Shown in pieces: positions 1 to 13,459 of a DNA stretch of 13,459 nucleotides (position 1 is its first letter; every line of letters starts with the position of its first letter). The DNA lies in the UHGV virus genome UHGV-0077154; one strand, given 5' to 3'. The DNA comes from a virus. Made by a program: the position numbers and the translations under genes. The notes under the pieces were generated by a model. The model made no database searches, was not told where the DNA came from, and saw nothing but the letters and a program-made list of their open reading frames with translations.

Positions 1-54
1 GAACGAGAGCTTCCCAAGCTCTATACGAGGGTTCGATTCCCTTCGCCCGCTCCA
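1..54 (+). tRNA. glyU: 3' 54 nt of tRNA-Gly (anticodon CCC); the 5' ~20 nt lie outside the window
   Basis: Sequence gaacgagagcttCCCaagctctatacgagggttcgattcccttcgcccgctcca matches from memory the 3' part of enterobacterial tRNA-Gly1: anticodon stem-loop AGAGC/TTCCCAA/GCTCT, T-arm GAGGG/TTCGATT/CCCTT, acceptor 3' strand CGCCCGC, discriminator T, CCA at 52-54. One extra matching base (g at position 1) compared with the right-hand copy suggests this is the genuine gene. Confidence 0.8.
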
Positions 55-85
55 GTCTCCTGATAAATCAACAAGTTATGATTTA
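2..85. repeat. attL: direct repeat, 60 bp perfect (2-61) plus 24 bp imperfect extension (62-85)
   Basis: 2-61 is identical to 13376-13435. The following 24 bp (62-85 vs 13436-13459) differ at only 3 positions, so 55-85 matches 13429-13459 at 28/31. Confidence 0.8.
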
Positions 86-2334: not shown

Positions 2335-3325
2335 TTCCACAACCTGCCCCGTAGGTGTCCCGGCTCTTTATCCTCCAAGTTTACATTCTCCTGTTGAAAA
2401 TATCCCCGGCTCTGTTGGTGATCTGCTAGACCGTCAGCCCAGGCCCTCGGTGAAAAGCGCTTTTCTTCGCCAAATATCGCTACGTTATGCCTTCAGCGAC
2501 ACGCCTCACTGCAACAAGCAGTGCAGTTACACAATGCTGCTTTGGGCTGAGGCAAGGGAGATAACTTGATGTTTTGAAGTGCCTCTGTTCACTAATTGTA
2601 CAACCATTTAACATATTGTATCTTATAAGTACTTGACTGGAATGGTCAGGTATTGCTTTTCGGAGCGTTGATGCGAAGCGGAGTACACAACAACGATTTG
2701 ATCAACAGAAGGAAAGCATTCGGGAGGATTTGAGGTGAGTTCTCTTGTTCAAGGATTTTGGATGAGTTTGTCCGGTCACCACACAATTTCAGGTTTCAGG
2801 CCTTTGAAGCTGCCAGCGCATCTAACACGATGAAAGAGCATTTTTCTCTTTATCAGCAGAAAAAGAGCTACTACGGCGACGTTACCACAACGGGGTGAAG
2901 AACTATCGTCACCTGGCGAAATTCTCCCGCCCTTGCAGGTCACGGATACGTACCTTTTCCCGCACCAGCGCAAGCCTTCTCACCAATAGCCCCGTATGCT
3001 CCACCAGAAGCGCTACAGCGCGTCATCTCCACACAATTGTAAACTACACACCCATAGCACAGCGCCCCGCTGAGAAGCTCTGACACGCCCAGAAATGGAT
3101 GGTTTTTCGTTGATTTTGCGAAGAAAATTAATTTTTTCGGTATGGAAGGGCGGATCGGTAAACTGGTTTGACACGCATTTGGTTGACATATTTAACGCAT
3201 CCAGCCCCTGCGCGGGTTCGTTGTGTATCCGATACCATAACGATCACCACACCACACAGGCGAGCCAGTGACAACAGACAGGATTTTCTAGCAATTAACC
3301 GCAATTAACAGGTATTAAAGCTCTA

Positions 3326-3697
3326 TTATTTCCCGCCGAAAATCCAACCGATGATGGCACCGATTATCGCAGAGCGGGTCTCACCTGCTGCTCCTTTGAG
3401 AACGTTAATAACTGCATCGCCTGCACCAGGTGCCTGCTGTTGAAGTAAATTCAAACCACGAGGTGTTAACTTGGCGGCGGTATCCATGTCGGTTGAAGAG
3501 ATTATCTCCGTGTAACCCATATCGCTGAGAGCCTGGAGTGTGTTGCAAAGCAGGTCAATCTGAGTTCTGTCTCCTCTGGGCTTCCAGCCGAAGTCTGAAA
3601 ATTCGAAAGAAGAGTAAGCCGGATAGTCCGCAAACAGTTTCACCAGGATTCCAGTTGCCATCTCGTTAAAGCTGTCTTTGCCTTGGACGAATTCCAT
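3326..3697 (-). CDS. Hypothetical protein (123 aa) with C-terminal Gly-rich hydrophobic tail (tail-anchored?)
   Basis: Good SD (AAAGGAAA, about 8 nt upstream of ATG on the minus strand). C-terminus SAIIGAIIGWIFGGK looks like a single TM/GxxxG segment. Transcribed divergently from the iteron/promoter control region. Confidence 0.6.
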   Translation of the reverse strand: MEFVQGKDSFNEMATGILVKLFADYPAYSSFEFSDFGWKPRGDRTQIDLLCNTLQALSDMGYTEIISSTDMDTAAKLTPRGLNLLQQQAPGAGDAVINVLKGAAGETRSAIIGAIIGWIFGGK

Positions 3698-3821
3698 AAT
3701 GTTTCCTTTTGTTCACTGATTGAACGAGGTTACTTACTTACCGCTGGAAGTGCCAGCAAGAAGGGATGACGCTGTGCTGTTAATCACTAGGTGAGGGGGT
3801 GTCTTCTACCAGAGGGGAGGC

Positions 3822-3916
3822 CATTGGTAAAGAATCTTAACTAACGTTAGTAAAGATCCTTAACCAGCCATTAGTAAAGAATCTTAACTAACCATTGGTA
3901 AAGATACTTAACCGTA
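3822..3916. repeat. Four tandem ~24-bp iterons (consensus about CATTG-GTAAAGA-ATCTTAAC), followed by an AT-rich stretch (3917-3970)
   Basis: GTAAAGA recurs at 3827, 3850, 3874 and 3898 (spacing 23/24/24 bp), with conserved flanks cattgGTAAAGAatcttaac. Downstream AT-rich DNA contains TAGATCA x2 and CTATATCA x2. Confidence 0.7.
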
Positions 3917-3985
3917 CTATATCACTTACTAGATCATCTTTAGATCACTGCCTATATCAGTAAAAACATTAAGGTCAAAGACAGA

Positions 3986-4001
3986 TTGAACATGCGTTCA
4001 A
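3986..4001. promoter_or_regulatory. Inverted repeat TTGAAC-ATGC-GTTCAA, operator-like
   Basis: 6-bp arms are exact reverse complements with a 4-bp spacer; located in the divergent control region. Confidence 0.35.
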
Positions 4002-4296
4002 TTGTTGGAGTTGTTAGGTGTTATGTAGACAGGCTTCGCCTGTTTACACTCTGTGTGGAAGACAAGCGCAAGCGCGTCAGTCCAATGTGGATCGAGCACG
4101 GCGCAGAGGAGCTTTAAACGCGACGTAACTCCCCCCTTGGAGGGGCGGCGCACCCCCCTCAACCCTGCGCTCTAACAACATCTCTAGAGTCCTCTATCGC
4201 GTTCTGAGCGTCTTTCTCTTATTGTTGGTGACTTTGTACCGTTCCGCTTACAGCGTTGAATCTGAAGCGTCTGAGAGCGTTTTGTGATTACGGGGC

Positions 4297-4410
4297 TTGA
4301 CAAAGAAAATGTATGTGTATAAGGTTGCGGGGTATTGACACAAAACATTTATATCTCTTTATTCATTAAATGAGTTATCGGTTGACAAAGAAACTAATTT
4401 ACTATAAAAT
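4297..4410 (+). promoter_or_regulatory. Three tandem TTGACA-containing repeats/promoters upstream of the rightward operon
   Basis: TTGACAAAGAAA at 4297-4308 and 4382-4393, TTGACACAAAAC at 4335-4346. The third has a good -10 (TAAAAT at 4405-4410, 17-bp spacer); the first has TATAAG at 4318-4323. All are oriented toward the CDS at 4469. Confidence 0.55.
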
Positions 4411-4468
4411 ATATATTATCAAATGAGATGATTTTATGACTAAACAATAACTTAAATAGGAGAGATAC

Positions 4469-4897
4469 ATGGGGAAACCTGTTCTGTTCGATTTCTCGAG
4501 CGCCACTGCCTCAGAGATTGTCGCTGCAATCGATGCAAAAATTACCACAGCTCAAAATCTGCACGCCTTCCGCACTCGTATGGGTGGTGCCAAGAAAGCC
4601 GATAAGCTCTATCCAGCTACTCGCGAAGCACTGAACATCATTAAACGCCTGCGTCAGCAAGCGAAAGACGCAAAAATCATCCGGGATATTCTTAAACCGT
4701 ACTCAGCAGAGTTGGCAAAAGGCCGTGATGTTATGGAAATCATTGAACCAGTGCTGTCTGCCTGGCGTGTCTATTACGCCTCTCATGGCATTGGTTTGAT
4801 GAATGAGCAGATCCTCCTGTTGAAAATGATTGAGGCGGGCGGTGAACTCGAAGGTATTACCGGAAAACCCATTCCCGAACTGACCACAACCGAATAA
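4469..4897 (+). CDS. Hypothetical protein (142 aa), first gene of rightward operon
   Basis: Strong SD AGGAGA with a 5-nt spacer to ATG; no family recognised. Confidence 0.7.
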   Translation: MGKPVLFDFSSATASEIVAAIDAKITTAQNLHAFRTRMGGAKKADKLYPATREALNIIKRLRQQAKDAKIIRDILKPYSAELAKGRDVMEIIEPVLSAWRVYYASHGIGLMNEQILLLKMIEAGGELEGITGKPIPELTTTE

Positions 4898-5072
4898 CCA
4901 TTCTCTTCTTTACGGTGCGAAGCACTTTACCAGAGGTAAACACCTCCGGTGCTATTAGCTTTACTCTGTTGGCAGCAACGCCACCAAACGAAATCGCCGT
5001 AAACACGGCTCCTTACCCCTGATCAATTCCATGATCGCAGGGGCGCACCCGCATATCTAACGCACAGGAGAG

Positions 5073-5264
5073 ATGATTGTGAAACTGTCACTAGACGATG
5101 AAACATATGCAATTTTACGCGAAGAATCTGACCGTTTGGGGATGCCAGTTCCGAGGATGATCCGGAACATGTGCCAGAACCTGGCGAAACACATTCAGAA
5201 ACGCAATGAACAACCACTGACGAACCCACAGGGAGAACAACATGACAGAGACAGTAGAAGCTAA
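5073..5264 (+). CDS. Ribbon-helix-helix-like small DNA-binding protein (~61-63 aa)
   Basis: IVKLSLDDETYAILREESDRLGMPVPRMIRNM fits the beta-strand plus two-helix pattern of CopG/Arc/MetJ-type RHH proteins. GGAG lies 8 nt upstream of GTG at 5079, which may be the true start rather than ATG at 5073. Confidence 0.55.
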   Translation: MIVKLSLDDETYAILREESDRLGMPVPRMIRNMCQNLAKHIQKRNEQPLTNPQGEQHDRDSRS

Positions 5265-5886
5265 TCTGCCAGACGAACAGGACGGCACTTTTGATCGCAA
5301 TTATACCGAGATTAAGCGCTTGAAAGTGTTGGTTGCCGACGATGGAACTAAAATTCCGTTCAGCGCGAACATGAAAGTAGTCTACGCCTACCTCTACACC
5401 TTCCAGACAAATAAAGAGCGGCGGAACTACCCTGAGCCAATTTATCCTAATATGGAAATAATCGCGTGGGAAAATGGCATTACTAAACCCACGGCGCAAA
5501 AGGCTGTGGATGATTTGATGCGGGCGGGGGTGTTGATTAAGGACCAAATTCAGGTTGGGAGCGGGTTTAAGTCCAACAATTACGTTGTGTTGAAACCCTC
5601 GAAAGTGGTGGCGCGTGGCGTCACTCCACCGCATCCAAATGCTTCTAAATATTCAACTGCCGAGGAGAGCGGTAAGAATGAACAAAAACGTGCTGTGGTG
5701 GAACCTGCCGCGCCTGTTGCTGGAAAACCAGACGGCATACCTGTTGTGGATATTCCTGTCGATGCTGATGTACCTGCCGATGATGATGCGGTGATCGGAG
5801 ACTTTAGTGATCCTTACCTTGATGCTGAAGTAAAAGAATGGCAGAAACAAAAACATAGTGGAGGATTGAATTGTGTGAACACGTAA
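5242..5886 (+). CDS. Putative winged-helix-like DNA-binding protein with acidic C-terminal tail (214 aa); candidate iteron-binding initiator or regulator
   Basis: SD GGGAGAA 4-5 nt before ATG; overlaps the upstream gene by 23 nt. Segment MEIIAWENGITKPTAQKAVDDLMRAGVLIK resembles a wHTH; C-terminus is D/E/P-rich (DIPVDADVPADDDAVIGDF). Function is inferred only. Confidence 0.6.
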   Translation: MTETVEANLPDEQDGTFDRNYTEIKRLKVLVADDGTKIPFSANMKVVYAYLYTFQTNKERRNYPEPIYPNMEIIAWENGITKPTAQKAVDDLMRAGVLIKDQIQVGSGFKSNNYVVLKPSKVVARGVTPPHPNASKYSTAEESGKNEQKRAVVEPAAPVAGKPDGIPVVDIPVDADVPADDDAVIGDFSDPYLDAEVKEWQKQKHSGGLNCVNT

Positions 5887-6511: not shown

Positions 6512-6892
6512 ATGACATTGAACAGCATTAAAAATGCTCTGTTTGCCGCTATGCACGGCATGACACCGGAGGAATACGAACTCCAAAAGGCGCGGGACAA
6601 TCTCAAGAGCGTCACCGATAACTTTCTGGATCAACATCCGGAGTTGCTCAAATCAGCCTCGTCTGACACCCCCACGGATAAACGGGGCGAAGCCCTCTCG
6701 CCAATGCGAGACACCTTTGGTGCTGAACAACGGATTAAAAAATCTTTGGGCGCTGATAGCCGTCCGGCGGTAAGTCATACCGCTGATCACATCGATCCTG
6801 AAATGCTGGCGAAAGCTAAAGCAGCGGCTGCTGCTCTCGCAAAATCTGACCCTGATCGTTACGGCAATATCATCAAGCAGCAGGGGGTGTGA
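6512..6892 (+). CDS. Hypothetical protein (126 aa)
   Basis: ORF with GGAG about 11 nt upstream; its stop overlaps the start of the next gene (GTGATGA), suggesting translational coupling. Ala/Lys-rich C-terminus. Confidence 0.55.
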   Translation: MTLNSIKNALFAAMHGMTPEEYELQKARDNLKSVTDNFLDQHPELLKSASSDTPTDKRGEALSPMRDTFGAEQRIKKSLGADSRPAVSHTADHIDPEMLAKAKAAAAALAKSDPDRYGNIIKQQGV

Positions 6893-9036
6893 TGGCGAAT
6901 GGCAATATCATAGTGACTGAAACCGTAAACGAGGTGACATGGTCTGTCGATCGGACAGCCTTCGGTCGCGCCCTGAAAGCTGTTAAATCCATCAAGGCTG
7001 CTCATGAGAAACCAGCTAAGGCGCTTGAGAAGGCCCAGAAGCGGACCGTCCAGAGTGAAGGCAAAGCCGCACTAGCAGCAGCGAAAGCCCAGACAGCGAA
7101 GCTACGCCAGGCTGAACAATTGTCTAAACAGCAACAGAAACAAGCTCAGATACAAGCCAAAATGGAGCGGGACGCAGTAGCCCACGCCAATAAAATGACC
7201 TCATTACAGGCGCGTCAGTTATCCCAACAGGAACAGGCAGCACGTCAGAATGCCCGTTTAGCAGCAATATCTGAAAAGGTGAGACAGGCGAGTCGCTCCC
7301 GCGCGATGACCTACACCCCAAACATGGGCGGTCAACATTACGATCCTGGTCTTGTTTCCCGTCAGACTGACGCAATGAACCGTGGTCACGGCGCTGTTGC
7401 TGCCGACATCGCAGCCACCAAAAAGGCGATGGCCCTGGAGGAGAAGCGCCAGCGTGAGAAAGAGGCAGGACTTAAGCGTGAGGTGACTTATTACAACAGT
7501 TTGCGCCGTAGCGCTTTGACTCTGGCAAACGTGAACGGCGCTGACGTTGCAACCCGTTATAAAGCGATCAGTGCAGCAAAAGAGGCACTCAAAGCCCAGA
7601 AAGAAGAGCGTTATACGGTCGAAGAGACCCGTTTCGAAATGGCCCGTATCACTACAGAATTACGCAAGCAGGCTCGTCTGCAACAACGTATTACCCGTGA
7701 GCAGAAAGCCGCAGGTGTTCGTGCTGGTCGTGTACGCACAGAAAGCCGTGGTGGAAGTGTAGGTCTGGCTGCCGCTGGTGTTGTTGGTGGTGCGGCGTTA
7801 GTAGGTAGTATGGGCGTTTCTCGTGTTGGTCAGACCCTTCAGGGAAGCCTTGAGCGTTCTCGCGATGTGAAAAAACTCCAGCAGTATGGGATCAGCAACC
7901 TTGAGTTCGCAGCACTTCAGGATCTATCAATGAGCCGTGTTGGTTACTCACTGAGTGCTGACAAGCTGGCTGACCTCAACAAGGACACAACCGAAAAGGC
8001 CGGGGAATTGCTGAATACTGGCTCTTTCAAACGTAACAAGAAAACTGGACAGGTGAATTTCAGCGGCGGTGGTGAGTTTGCAGATATCATCAATAACGTA
8101 CTGACCTCCACCAACGGCAACCAGAAGGTAGCCCAAAAGGTGATCGGGGAACTGCAAAAACTGGATTTTCCAACATTTATCACTTATCTAAAGCAATTAC
8201 AGAAAACTTTCGGCTGGACTGATCGACAGGTGCGACACCTGGCCGAGGCTGTGAATGATGGTTCGGTCTTCCTCGAAGTGTTCAATGATGAGGGGCAGGG
8301 ACTTATCCAGCGTATGAATCAACTCGCTTCTGAAGGATGGACCCTATCTGATGCACAGCAGGCCAACCTTGATAAGCTGGCAGCTTTGGGTGCTGAGTAC
8401 AGTCGCGTGCAGATGTCGCTTGCTGACCACTTCAGCGCCAGCTTCGTGCAGGGTCTGGGAGAATATGCAGCTAATACTGACACTCTACGTCAGAAGATGA
8501 CTGGACTGATCCCAATTTCCGATGCTCTCGGCGTTGCCCTTGGTGAGCTAACCACCAACATTCTCTCCTTCGCTGGTCGAGTCGGTGAAGAACTCAAGAA
8601 AGGCGCGACACTGCCGGATGCAGTCTACAACACCGTAGTGGATGACTCTGCAAATAGCACCGCCGATTGGATTAAGGAAAAGACCGGATTTGATCCACGC
8701 AGCATCGGTCAGACGCTCAAACAGATTTACCCGTGGCTGGATAGTTTCGCTCCGAGCAATATCGGCTCAGGCACGGCGTATAACGATCCAGCGCTAGCGT
8801 TGAATGTTCCTGGTTTCAACTCAATACAACCCCAGCAACCAACGTTTACGATTCCGACAATTGACAGCATGACGCAGCGACAGCCGATTCCTGTTGCGGT
8901 CACTGGCGAAGCTGAGATTAAACTCTCACCGCTTGATATTAACGTGAATGACGGCGCTATTAACGGTTTGATTGATACAAAACTGAGGAGCTATGAGCAG
9001 GCACAGAACAACATGATCCTTGGTATTGCTCAATGA
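6889..9036 (+). CDS. Large coiled-coil protein with central Gly/Ala-rich hydrophobic segment (715 aa); tape-measure-like or scaffold-like structural protein
   Basis: N-terminal ~270 aa are A/K/Q/R-rich heptad-like repeats (KAQTAKLRQAEQLSKQQQKQAQIQAKMERD). Central segment GGSVGLAAAGVVGGAALVGSMGV is TM-like. Sits immediately upstream of the D/E-like capsid genes. ATG at 6892 is the more likely start (GGGGG 4 nt upstream). Assignment is by architecture only. Confidence 0.55.
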   Translation: MMANGNIIVTETVNEVTWSVDRTAFGRALKAVKSIKAAHEKPAKALEKAQKRTVQSEGKAALAAAKAQTAKLRQAEQLSKQQQKQAQIQAKMERDAVAHANKMTSLQARQLSQQEQAARQNARLAAISEKVRQASRSRAMTYTPNMGGQHYDPGLVSRQTDAMNRGHGAVAADIAATKKAMALEEKRQREKEAGLKREVTYYNSLRRSALTLANVNGADVATRYKAISAAKEALKAQKEERYTVEETRFEMARITTELRKQARLQQRITREQKAAGVRAGRVRTESRGGSVGLAAAGVVGGAALVGSMGVSRVGQTLQGSLERSRDVKKLQQYGISNLEFAALQDLSMSRVGYSLSADKLADLNKDTTEKAGELLNTGSFKRNKKTGQVNFSGGGEFADIINNVLTSTNGNQKVAQKVIGELQKLDFPTFITYLKQLQKTFGWTDRQVRHLAEAVNDGSVFLEVFNDEGQGLIQRMNQLASEGWTLSDAQQANLDKLAALGAEYSRVQMSLADHFSASFVQGLGEYAANTDTLRQKMTGLIPISDALGVALGELTTNILSFAGRVGEELKKGATLPDAVYNTVVDDSANSTADWIKEKTGFDPRSIGQTLKQIYPWLDSFAPSNIGSGTAYNDPALALNVPGFNSIQPQQPTFTIPTIDSMTQRQPIPVAVTGEAEIKLSPLDINVNDGAINGLIDTKLRSYEQAQNNMILGIAQ

Positions 9037-9132
9037 TGAAACAGAGGGTGGCGAATTCGTCGCCCCTATCTCAACACCACAATGCGTATGTATCAAATTT
9101 AGCGACAAATCAAATACTTTTCGTGAAATTTG

Positions 9133-9161
9133 TTGTAAATGATAATCATTCGTGTTAAAAT
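9133..9161 (+). promoter_or_regulatory. Sigma70-like promoter (TTGTAA-17-TAAAAT) overlapped by a Fur-box-like element
   Basis: AATGATAATCATT at 9138-9150 matches the central 13 of the 19-bp Fur consensus GATAATGATAATCATTATC (14/19 overall); -35 at 9133-9138, -10 at 9156-9161. Confidence 0.4.
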
Positions 9162-9645: not shown

Positions 9646-9987
9646 ATGAAAATGGGAAGCCTTGAGCGCTCTTACAATGACGTGATCGCGTATGCAGCCG
9701 ATCCGAATTTTGACCGCAAGACTATTACTGTCGATCTAGCTGTAGAAGTCCAGCCGGGTAGTTGCATTACCAGCACTGGAGCTGCTTATGTCTCTGGTGA
9801 TGACTGCCTGCTGGTCCTGAGCCACCACAGGGCCGAAGATGCTGCTCATATCATCGTTGCTGATCGCGGGATTTACATCAAACAAGACACCATCACCGCT
9901 GTTATGGGCGCTACCGCTGGCGCTAATGCTATTGCCGCACTCACCAAAACGGGCGCAATCCGTACTAGCGCACCGGACGCAGAATAA
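9646..9987 (+). CDS. Lambda gpD-like head decoration protein (113 aa), tentative
   Basis: Size (113 aa vs 110 for lambda D), position directly upstream of the E-like gene, and a Gly/Ala/Thr-rich beta-type composition (TITVDLAVEVQPGSCITSTGAAYVSGDD...TAGANAIAALTKTGAIRTS). SD GGGAG 8 nt before ATG. Confidence 0.45.
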   Translation: MKMGSLERSYNDVIAYAADPNFDRKTITVDLAVEVQPGSCITSTGAAYVSGDDCLLVLSHHRAEDAAHIIVADRGIYIKQDTITAVMGATAGANAIAALTKTGAIRTSAPDAE

Positions 9988-10005: not shown

Positions 10006-11040
10006 ATGGGACTATCAACCAATTTCAGCTACGCGGATTACACCAACACCTTTGTGAACATGGATGCAAAGAACACTTTGCTGTCCACGCTTAATGTTTT
10101 CAGTGATCGTCAGACTTCTGCAAGTCCGAAGGTGAGCCTCGATATCATTGATGAAGTCGCTCAGAAGGTGGCAAGCTCTGTTAATCGTTACGGTTCAGAG
10201 TGGTCAACCATTCCTAAGCGTAGCGCTAGCAATCACCTGATTGAAGCTCCACTTTATGCTTTTCAAGACCGGATTACAGCGGCAGACGTGCAACCATATC
10301 GCAAACCAGGCTCCGACCTGCAAATGTCTGTAATGGATGCGGTCACTTCTTCTGCTGTCGCAATGCACGATAAGTACATGCGTACTAAAGAGAAAATTTT
10401 CGCTGACGCACTCTTCCGAAATACTGTCGAAGCGACCTACACCCAGCAGCCGATCATTTCCTGGGAAGATGAATTTGGATACCAACAGGCAACCGGAACG
10501 ATCAAAACCAGCGTTAGCTCTGGTGACCCACTTCGCAGCCTCGATGATGCAGTAACCGCTGCTAAAGTGCGCATGGGGGGCCTGGCTGGTCAGCTTGATG
10601 GATTTATCCTGTTTGCAGGTAGCAATGTTTATCGCGGCATTAAGTATCACCCTGATGTTCGTCAGAATGTTCAGTTCGGTGTGCTTGATCGGGATGTTCT
10701 GTTTAATAAAGAAGTGCTTCCGGCATTCTCAACATTCATCATTGAAAATGTTCGAGTGGTGGAGGTCACGGATCAGGCACTTTACGGAATTGGTCCGGAT
10801 GAATCCTTCCTGGTTCCACGTTTCAGCCGCCCACTGTCCTCTGATATTGCTCTACCTTTCGGTTATGTAGCAACGGCTACCAGCCGCAATCTTGATCTGG
10901 CATTTGCTGATCCGGTTGATTTCCGTATCTGGAGCGTACAGGACAAGTTTAAGAACGTGGAGCTATTCGCGGAAAGCTCAATCTTGCCTGTGGTGTACCG
11001 TCCGGATTTCGTTACAAAACTGACGAACGACGCAGCGTAA
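10006..11040 (+). CDS. Major capsid protein, lambda gpE-like family (344 aa)
   Basis: Strong SD AAGGAGAAG. Length 344 aa vs 341 for lambda E. C-terminal region ...VVYRPDFVTKLT resembles lambda E ...LADPDEFVSVQLA. Gene order decoration-then-capsid as in lambda. A hairpin at 11053-11074 (TGGGGC-N10-GCCCCA) follows the stop. Confidence 0.6.
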   Translation: MGLSTNFSYADYTNTFVNMDAKNTLLSTLNVFSDRQTSASPKVSLDIIDEVAQKVASSVNRYGSEWSTIPKRSASNHLIEAPLYAFQDRITAADVQPYRKPGSDLQMSVMDAVTSSAVAMHDKYMRTKEKIFADALFRNTVEATYTQQPIISWEDEFGYQQATGTIKTSVSSGDPLRSLDDAVTAAKVRMGGLAGQLDGFILFAGSNVYRGIKYHPDVRQNVQFGVLDRDVLFNKEVLPAFSTFIIENVRVVEVTDQALYGIGPDESFLVPRFSRPLSSDIALPFGYVATATSRNLDLAFADPVDFRIWSVQDKFKNVELFAESSILPVVYRPDFVTKLTNDAA

Positions 11041-12092: not shown

Positions 12093-12118
12093 AAAAAGGC
12101 GCAATAGCGCCTTTTTTT
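12093..12118. terminator. Bidirectional rho-independent terminator (AAAAAGGCGC-AATA-GCGCCTTTTTTT)
   Basis: Perfect GGCGC/GCGCC stem with a 4-nt loop, flanked by an A-run and a T-run; sits between the convergent cassette gene 2 and integrase 3' ends. Confidence 0.8.
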
Positions 12119-13313
12119 ACAAATCCGGATAACACGCCAACTCGACATACTCCGATAGTTCCTTCATCCCTGGCCCTTTGCTGTAGGTTCTGAATGCTTC
12201 GGTTTTCGCTTTTTGTTCGGTATGTCCAGTGATGGCTCCGATCCGTTGTTCTGGCACCCCTGCACGGTCTAAGCAGGTGATGAACATTCCCCGTAAGCTG
12301 TGAAAACATTGCCGATCTGTAGCGGTTGGCAATGTGCTGTCACGTAGCCGGGTAAACTTTTGGCTGTACCACGGACCCCGCTTACCATCCTTCCGAATGA
12401 TGTTATTAGACTGAGCCAGAAGATATTCACCGCTGTTATTTGCCAGATGCTTATCAACAATCCCCATCAGCAGCGAGTGGATCGGAACATACCGCACCCC
12501 GGCTACAGTCTTGGACTTGCTGACAAAGAAACATCTGACACCCTCCAACATTACAATTTCATCCCGCTTGATGCTGGCGATCTCATCAAGTCGCATTCCT
12601 GAATACAGCCCAATCAGTATGACATCGCGTAGAACGTCATCCGCTTCTCTGACAAGTGTTTGCAATTGTTCAGGTTCAAACGGCTGATAACTTTCTATCG
12701 TGCGACGTGCTTCGAGGTTATGACCGTGAAACGGGTTACTGTCGGGGATTGCGTCATATCGACGTTTGGCGAACTCGTACAGACTCCCTAAAGAGGTTAG
12801 CCAGTTTTGCACGGTCTGCGGTGCTGCCTTTTTCTGTTGGCCTTCAATGAAGTCTGTAACCGTTCTGCGTCCTATCTTGTTCAGACTAATATCAACTTTA
12901 CCGATACTCTGGAGAAATACTTCCACCGCTCGCGCGGATTTGCTGAGTGTGGAAAATGCCCGACGTTCACTATAAACCGTCATGTATTCATCACGGATGA
13001 CTGCCAACGTTGGGATAGGGGAGACTGCTACAGGCGTACTCTTGGCCTGTTTGATTGTGGTGTGGAGTGTGGTGATCGCATTCTGGATGCGAATGTCTTC
13101 CCGATCAGGATTCAACAGGGCTTTCAGATTGTTGAACTCAATCAACATGTGATTTCTGAAGTGACGAGCCTTAAGGATGTCTTTTGTCCCGGTGGATTTT
13201 CGCCAGGCTCGTTTGTTGTCAAACAGGTGACGCATGTACGCAGGTACAAAGACCTGAAAGATCCATACGCCCGAATGACTTTGAAAAAGATACTGATTGT
13301 TCTTGATAGACAT
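12117..13313 (-). CDS. int: Tyrosine recombinase / phage-type integrase (398 aa)
   Basis: C-terminal catalytic motifs: GMRLDEI (Arg box I), HSLRGMFITCLDRAGVPEQRIGAITGH (H-x-x-R box II), FRTYSKG (catalytic Tyr). SD AGAGGA about 8 nt upstream of ATG; gene lies next to attR. Confidence 0.9.
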   Translation of the reverse strand: MSIKNNQYLFQSHSGVWIFQVFVPAYMRHLFDNKRAWRKSTGTKDILKARHFRNHMLIEFNNLKALLNPDREDIRIQNAITTLHTTIKQAKSTPVAVSPIPTLAVIRDEYMTVYSERRAFSTLSKSARAVEVFLQSIGKVDISLNKIGRRTVTDFIEGQQKKAAPQTVQNWLTSLGSLYEFAKRRYDAIPDSNPFHGHNLEARRTIESYQPFEPEQLQTLVREADDVLRDVILIGLYSGMRLDEIASIKRDEIVMLEGVRCFFVSKSKTVAGVRYVPIHSLLMGIVDKHLANNSGEYLLAQSNNIIRKDGKRGPWYSQKFTRLRDSTLPTATDRQCFHSLRGMFITCLDRAGVPEQRIGAITGHTEQKAKTEAFRTYSKGPGMKELSEYVELACYPDL

Positions 13314-13375
13314 GATTTCGATCCTCTAAAATCACGCCATCAGGTACAGCCATATGTACAATGTCGGGATGGAGT

Positions 13376-13459
13376 AACGAGAGCTTCCCAAGCTCTATAC
13401 GAGGGTTCGATTCCCTTCGCCCGCTCCAGTCTCCTCATAAATTAACAAGTTATAATTTA
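13376..13459. repeat. attR: partial tRNA-Gly 3' copy (60 bp perfect to 13435) plus imperfect extension to the window end
   Basis: Identical to 2-61; the sequence upstream (caatgtcgggatggagt) does not match the tRNA 5' half, so this is the truncated copy. Confidence 0.8.

Follow-up and report, generated by a model that had tools for sequence, protein, structure and literature searches.

The window analyzed here, a stretch of 13,459 nucleotides from UHGV virus genome UHGV-0077154, corresponds to exactly one integrated island of ~13.4 kb. The island is flanked by an 84-nt direct repeat, the left copy of which (attL; positions 2 to 85, plus strand) is 96% identical to the right copy (attR; 13376 to 13459, plus strand). 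attL holds the 3' half of a tRNA gene (Rfam tRNA match at 1 to 51, its 5' end cut off), and a tRNA-like match is also found at the right border (13365 to 13424). The anticodon loop TTCCCAA in attL, as read from the sequence, points to tRNA-Gly(CCC) as the integration site; an Escherichia coli relative of the island (L001) is integrated at tRNA-Thr. A tyrosine integrase (Pfam Phage_integrase) is encoded at 12117 to 13313 on the minus strand. The hosts of the island family are Enterobacteriaceae.

The island has a capsid gene of its own, encoding a lambda-E-like major capsid protein (10006 to 11040) and preceded by the gene of a 113-aa protein (9646 to 9987), and no portal, protease, or terminase was recognized on it. 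Another gene encodes a 715-aa coiled-coil protein (6889 to 9036), the central part of which is swapped between relatives. This ORF was considered as a primase-helicase and rejected, as it has no Walker-A motif and only weak matches to coiled-coil or tape-measure-like PHROGs. A 26-nt stretch inside the 715-aa gene (7842 to 7867) recurs as a direct repeat with 85% identity at the start of the 113-aa gene (9654 to 9679), which may be a chance match. Toward the left end, a 211-aa DUF4145 protein (622 to 1257) is a full-length match (E = 4e-98) to PD-T7-4, a single-gene antiphage defense system. This cargo gene adjoins a segment of low G+C content (~1200 to 2100; 33 to 36% G+C) with a 272-aa predicted membrane protein. 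A stretch of ~1 kb (2340 to 3326) contains no ORF longer than 65 aa, and the matching stretch of the E. coli relative (L001, 6151 to 7131) is unannotated; it could be a decayed gene or a further noncoding element. No Walker-A motif was found in any island ORF of at least 80 aa, and no island protein matched a helicase or primase family. The absence of a helicase that had been noted originally was thus confirmed and extends to P-loop primase-helicases. With no helicase-type ATPase, recognizable helicase loader, or primase of its own, the island must borrow a replisome.

The feature under study is an array of four ~24-bp iterons (3820 to 3916; here called type A) in a divergent intergenic region, ~120 bp upstream of a gene for a 123-aa protein. 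The repeat units (3820 to 3845, 3843 to 3868, 3867 to 3892, and 3891 to 3916) start 23, 24, and 24 bp apart. Tandem Repeats Finder reported 4.0 copies with a period of 24 (score of 104) and 2 copies with a period of 47 (score of 153). The core TTRGTAAAGANNCTTAAC has four exact matches on the plus strand and two more on the minus strand, the latter within units 1 and 3; each unit is hence an imperfect palindrome (TTAGTAAAGA / TCTTAACTAA), proposed as the site for a dimer of the 214-aa protein discussed below. Six matches were observed against 0.02 expected, none of 200 shuffled sequences gave six, and the window contains no further copy. We took at least three evenly spaced direct repeats, above chance, as one mark of an iteron origin, and the array has this structure. 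The four repeats of the original prediction are therefore real. The same array occurs in two related loci (L010 and L059), and a slightly drifted form is found in six others (L053 to L057 and L060). At the left edge of the array lies a single GGTGTCTTCTACCAGAGGGGAGG box (3797 to 3819), with a 10-nt inverted partner at 4055 to 4064. The box equals repeat type I of three relatives (L003, L019, and L020), where it is present in three or four tandem copies, and its lone copy in the window is probably either a remnant of a different specificity or the mark of a recombination boundary.

To the right of the iterons, an A+T-rich segment (3917 to 3984) is the candidate unwinding zone. It includes ~12-bp repeats of the TAGATCAC type (3915 to 3949), has GATC sites at 3932 and 3943, and is closed by TTAAGGTCAAAGACAG (3969 to 3984), which is conserved in the family. 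The three 60-bp segments starting at 3850, 3880, and 3910 (together 3850 to 3970) are among the least stable 1.5 to 3% of the window. The A+T-rich stretch that had been predicted is borne out in its composition (67 to 70% A+T against ~52% for the island), but its distinctness is moderate, as the iterons are equally A+T rich and a promoter zone near 4398 is less stable still. The segment is followed by an 18-bp palindrome, ATTGAACatgcGTTCAAT (3985 to 4002), with 7-nt arms and a 4-nt loop (ATTGAAC-atgc-GTTCAAT). Neither a DnaA box (one mismatch allowed) nor an IHF consensus was found within 3790 to 4010, and their counts across the window are at chance level; such sites are present in many plasmid origins and are not obligatory. 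We considered GATC clusters as a mark of the origin across the family and dropped them, as types A, B, and G have two or three sites and the others have none or one.

Just right of these elements lies a G+C-rich, conserved noncoding core (4028 to 4170), the most stable DNA of the window. The core is ~85 to 95% conserved across the family and is kept even in a distant relative (L032). Its hairpins change between relatives as whole cassettes (e.g., GGCTTCgatGAAGCC versus GACTGCgatGCAGTC), which is probably why RNAalifold, run on a MAFFT alignment of the core, gave no covariation support. Changes in the stems that were noticed by eye are not numerous enough to serve as evidence, and the core matches no Rfam family. 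It may lie outside the origin proper. Farther right, three promoter-like sites of the TTGACA...TATAA type (4290 to 4420, plus strand) are located upstream of a gene for a 142-aa protein. A promoter scan recovered one of them (4382 to 4410; 11 of 12 positions matching); the remaining two were identified by eye, and the sites are conserved in the E. coli relative. The cluster is the probable start of a rightward operon comprising the 142-aa gene, a gene for a 63-aa protein resembling ribbon-helix-helix (RHH) proteins, and the gene of the 214-aa protein, and a search between the 142-aa and RHH genes yielded no promoter.

To place the array in its family, we gathered 31 related loci from Escherichia, Pseudenterobacter, Citrobacter, and gut metagenomes, with the conserved 142-aa protein beside the repeats as the anchor. 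The family is a mosaic. Between the window and the E. coli island, the flanks are ~85 to 95% identical; two blocks are exchanged, that of the repeats (3764 to 3962), for which the E. coli island has other repeats, and that spanning the 63-aa and 214-aa ORFs (5025 to 5858). Across the loci, at least 10 unrelated types of repeat (A to J; two to five copies per array) occupy the slot that is bordered by the left flank and a conserved TTAAGGTCAAAG motif; type B, for example, has TCATCGGTAAYGGTTAC. In every type inspected, the repeats are followed by an A+T-rich stretch and then by the palindrome, which occurs in four compensated variants (in relatives, GTGAAC/GTTCAC, ATAGAC/GTCTAT, and AATGAC/GTCATT). 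In the rows with a correctly placed palindrome, the A+T-rich segment measures 55 to 99 bp with 63 to 77% A+T; four rows (L014, L018, L019, and L024), in which the script had picked wrong hairpins, were unreliable and left out. Lone copies of other repeat types are also seen at the left edges of arrays: one type A unit in L022 (4144 to 4161), A-like and G-like units in L002 (~9085 to 9125), one type C unit in L016 (~9137 to 9158), and the type I unit of the window. These stray units suggest repeated recombination within or beside the arrays.

Next, we determined which protein varies with the repeats. The ORFs downstream of the anchor gene were clustered, the loci were reduced to 24 distinct mosaics, and the agreement between protein cluster and repeat type was expressed as the adjusted Rand index (ARI) with a permutation P value. 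The second ORF after the anchor gene (ORF2), the position of the 214-aa protein, stood out: its N-domain followed the repeat type with an ARI of 0.82 (P of ~5e-4). The values were 0.34 for the RHH gene (P of ~5e-4), 0.11 for the 142-aa gene (P = 0.04), and 0.06 for ORF3, which encodes a 158-aa HTH-like protein (P = 0.16). The C-terminal part of ORF2 itself reached only 0.07 (P = 0.18). As the 142-aa and RHH genes physically separate the repeats from ORF2, the link between repeats and N-domain has outlasted the recombination that scrambled the genes in between, which argues for selection on a functional pair. The sole clear mismatch (L006; ERZ773149 NODE-7427, a metagenome contig with 2.6x coverage) combines type B repeats with a D-like ORF2 N-domain and may be a chimeric assembly or a recent noncognate recombinant. 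In another exception (L005), the protein groups with type I (50% identity) but differs in the predicted recognition region.

The association also held in a prospective test, in which loci were fetched via homologues of the 214-aa protein and not via the anchor gene. Five homologues had N-domains 75 to 95% identical to that of the window, and all five were accompanied by four type A or slightly drifted repeats with a 24-bp period, 1.33 to 1.6 kb upstream of the gene. These five carried four different C-terminal tails and different flanking genes. A 66% homologue had a related but shifted repeat, and two proteins with the tail of the window but an unrelated N-domain (26% identity) had no type A repeats. 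The other neighboring genes were rejected as repeat binders. The 63-aa RHH-like protein (5073 to 5264, plus strand; RHH assignment read from the sequence), which had been named for binding tests on the repeats, falls in a cluster (c2) of near-identical proteins that accompany six repeat types (A, C, E, F, G, and I). The 123-aa and 142-aa proteins are each 95 to 99% identical across several repeat types. The RHH-like gene overlaps the start of the 214-aa gene by 23 nt. CopG and RepB are arranged similarly in some plasmids, which suggests a role for the RHH protein in regulating expression of the putative initiator.

The 214-aa protein (5242 to 5886, plus strand) is encoded ~1.3 kb to the right of the iterons. 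Its AlphaFold model, built from an alignment of 52 sequences, comprises a confident winged helix (residues ~20 to 125), a disordered acidic linker (136 to 196), and a short C-terminal helix (191 to 205). The N terminus has the RepA_N/DnaD-NTD-like winged-helix fold that marks initiators of the PLE RepA/DUF6945 kind. The best match of this domain, by both structure and profile, is PDB 4RO3, the N-terminal, DNA-binding domain of RepA from the Vibrio cholerae satellite PLE (PMC7145576), a proven initiator that binds iterons. The nearest neighbors of 4RO3 (4PTA, 4PT7, and 2V79; PMC7145576) are structural neighbors of our model as well, and MarR/ArsR-like regulators are also close. The family profile finds 4RO3 at an E value of 1.7e-4 (hhalign probability of 88%), and the 4RO3 sequence itself matches Pfam DUF6945 (PF22182) at 6e-22. 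Membership in DUF6945 is clear for the ORF2 proteins of four types (B, E, F, and G; 50 to 76 bits). The type A protein of the window falls below the Pfam DUF6945 threshold and has no Pfam match at an E value of ≤0.01; its phmmer homologues carry PF22182, and it is predicted to be a remote member of the same family. Nine of the 10 ORF2 types matched PHROGs of replication initiators, and no named match was a repressor family; the 214-aa protein has weak matches to O-like PHROGs (E values of 5e-4 to 1e-3). Neither it nor ORF2 matched Pfam RepA_N (PF06970) at the sequence level.

Taken together, the data point to 3820 to 4002 as the vegetative replication origin of the island and to the 214-aa protein as its cognate initiator, a reading to which we assign a probability of roughly 0.8. 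The original prediction had seen no initiator on the island, a statement that does not hold given the match of the 214-aa protein to PLE RepA and the covariation of its N-domain with the repeats. Its alternative suggestion, that the winged-helix protein might be a minimal initiator, gains strong support from the same two lines of evidence. By the proposed mechanism, dimers of the N-terminal winged helix would bind the four dyad-symmetric 24-bp iterons, as the covariation and the homology to PLE RepA suggest, and the bound array would destabilize the adjacent A+T-rich segment. The initiator would then recruit the replisome of the host or of a helper phage, the likely recruiting part being a short C-terminal peptide at the end of the acidic linker.

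The most serious competing explanation, which we consider improbable, is that the repeats form an operator array and that the 214-aa protein is a transcription regulator, e.g., a master repressor, whose variable tails would respond to proteins of the helper or host in the manner of the Stl repressors of SaPIs. Repressor-operator pairs are equally expected to covary, the location of the repeats between divergent genes, ~120 bp upstream of the 123-aa gene, is compatible with an operator, and the resemblance to MarR/ArsR-like regulators fits such a role. However, the protein to which it comes closest in fold and profile is a proven initiator, and the named PHROG matches are all replication proteins. 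The rightward promoters are also 380 to 560 bp away from the repeats, no promoter-like site overlaps the repeats, and islands without the 123-aa gene retain the repeats, the A+T-rich segment, and the palindrome. One protein could fill both roles, since repression of their own genes is common among initiators that bind iterons.

Two further explanations seem very unlikely to us, and to a similar degree. The island could copy the origin of a helper phage and be replicated by the initiator of that helper, the 214-aa protein being unrelated to the repeats. The lambda-like layout of the region and the lack of a helicase are compatible with such mimicry, which had been raised at the outset, but no phage or plasmid record matches 3760 to 4470, and in IMG/VR (2.9 million viral contigs) the repeat core TTRGTAAAGANNCTTAAC is present only as single chance copies. 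Moreover, the repeats covary with a protein encoded by the island itself, for which no phage or plasmid relatives were found. A search for Odn-like DUF6945 nucleases in enterobacterial phages (types A, B, F, and G) likewise found none and matched Vibrio phages only: the type G N-domain matches 40 phages of the ICP1 group, in a gene that fuses DUF6945 to T5orf172. Odn, the nuclease by which ICP1 cleaves the PLE origin at the iterons through mimicry of RepA, has this architecture (PMC8263062). Alternatively, the repeats could be a packaging (pac/cos) or partition site bound by another island protein, such as the RHH protein or the HTH-like ORF3. The capsid genes on an island with no recognizable terminase would suit a packaging site, and RHH proteins often bind tandem repeats. 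Against this, the RHH cluster c2 accompanies six repeat types (ARI of 0.34), ORF3 is not associated with the repeats (ARI of 0.06), and the adjoining A+T-rich segment and palindrome are features of origins. The earlier suggestion of a packaging-recognition site found no support.

The C termini of the ORF2 family deserve separate treatment, as they are modular: among 106 homologues (P0001 to P0106), interchangeable tails follow the disordered acidic linker. The survey of tails also took in nine loci (L004, L005, L012, L014, L016, L019, L020, L022, and L024). In at least 39 of the 106 homologues, an acidic tail ends in ...D[FY]xxxIPF-COOH, which closely resembles the C-terminal tip of E. coli SSB (DFDDDIPF); the tail of P0026, for example, is ...EDFDDSIPF. 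The SSB tip recruits at least 17 partner proteins, including PriA (PMC10018359, PMC5531588). The tail of the window, ...DAEVKEWQKQKHSGGLNCVNT, represents a recurrent module of the type ...KEWQKQKHSGG(LNCVNT/IIV), and further recurrent tails are ...ADFDAALENL, ...KWKDFDMATTCDFL, ...ELAAAVASLGGIIV, and ...ESHGIFDHIAEGVY. We also considered a truncated C terminus in the 214-aa protein and rejected it, as more than 20 clusters of homologues share this tail although their N-domains differ. The tails could be docking peptides for replisome partners.

A more speculative extension, which we put forward tentatively and regard as rather unlikely, is a plug-and-play initiator, in which the acidic linker connects two interchangeable parts, a DNA-binding domain with at least 10 iteron specificities and a C-terminal docking peptide that, in one common form, copies the SSB tip. 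If so, an initiator with no helicase would plug directly into SSB-binding proteins such as PriA, DnaG, and Pol III chi, and the tail of the window (...DAEVKEWQKQKHSGGLNCVNT) would be a different docking peptide. The many specificities would then reflect an arms race with origin-directed nucleases of helpers (cf. ICP1 Odn) or, alternatively, incompatibility between coresident islands.

Under the origin reading, the 214-aa protein, which lacks an annotation, gains a putative function that extends to the DUF6945/HTH_36 proteins in its place in a family of islands with capsid genes (Enterobacter, Klebsiella, Citrobacter, and Escherichia). The at least 10 natural pairs of DNA-binding domain and iteron offer material for studying how winged-helix specificity evolves. 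The alternative tails, including the look-alike of the SSB tip, could reveal the way in which a replisome is recruited by RepA_N-type initiators, a question that the authors of the PLE study raise as open (PMC7145576). As PD-T7-4 is part of their cargo, the mode of replication of these islands bears on the spread of defense genes. Neither the island family nor DUF6945 is mentioned in any paper of the literature searched, and the family is apparently undescribed so far. It fits none of the P4, PICI, cfPICI, PLE, and PICMI families.

Several known systems share parts of this arrangement. Analyzed with the same tool, ori lambda has four dyad-symmetric iterons spaced 20, 24, and 23 bp apart, an A+T-rich run of ~40 bp, and a palindrome, i.e., the same parts in the same order as 3820 to 4002 of the island, with the palindrome in the same position. 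The original comparison of the layout with ori lambda was therefore apt. In lambda O, the N-domain is iteron specific and a separate C-terminal part serves for partners, and among lambdoid phages the O N-domain and the iterons covary. The lambda origin, however, lies inside the O gene, whereas that of the island would be intergenic and 1.3 kb upstream of the initiator gene. The 214-aa protein has no meaningful BLASTP similarity to O and no match to the Pfam O family, and no homologue of a P-like helicase loader was found on the island. The RepA_N initiators of staphylococcal plasmids (pSK41 and pTZ2162; PDB 4PTA, 4PT7, and 5KBJ) and the DnaD N-domain are also close, although those initiators belong to Gram-positive plasmids and not to an integrated enterobacterial island. 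SaPI/PICI elements and P4 are also integrated islands of the satellite type, and each has an origin in which iterons are combined with an A+T-rich region, as proposed for this island. Their initiators have helicase as well as primase activity and are sufficient for replication to be autonomous (PMC7145576), whereas no Walker-A protein is encoded here (ORFs of at least 80 aa).

The closest counterpart is the PLE of V. cholerae. RepA of PLE provides the best match to the N-domain, and several island types belong to the same Pfam family (DUF6945). Both elements have semipalindromic iterons in a noncoding region upstream of the initiator gene (NCR3 in PLE; PMC7145576, PMC8263062), and both are integrated satellite-like islands with no helicase or primase in the initiator or elsewhere on the element. 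PLE RepA has no helicase or primase activity and works only during infection by the helper phage ICP1, a helper dependence that has been shown for PLE (PMC7145576). Exchange in both affects the DNA-binding domain together with the origin, as one module, and leaves out the remainder of the element. In PLEs, the RepA_N domain covaries with the intergenic origin, and origin swaps prove cognate specificity (PMC8263062). PLEs have been reported only from V. cholerae (PMC10085698), and in the literature searched, helicase-less PLE-type replicons are known only from that species. The island is nevertheless not a PLE: besides the initiator, there were no PLE-like matches to core genes such as the large serine recombinase, capR, nixI, and lidI. 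It has a tyrosine instead of a serine integrase and its own lambda-E-like capsid gene, and it measures 13.4 kb versus ~18 kb. The C-terminal domain is conserved in PLE, whereas the C-terminal tail of the island family is modular, and at least 10 specificities are found here versus two in PLE. By these comparisons, the island is predicted to carry a modular replicon of the PLE type in a new host clade, the Enterobacteriaceae.
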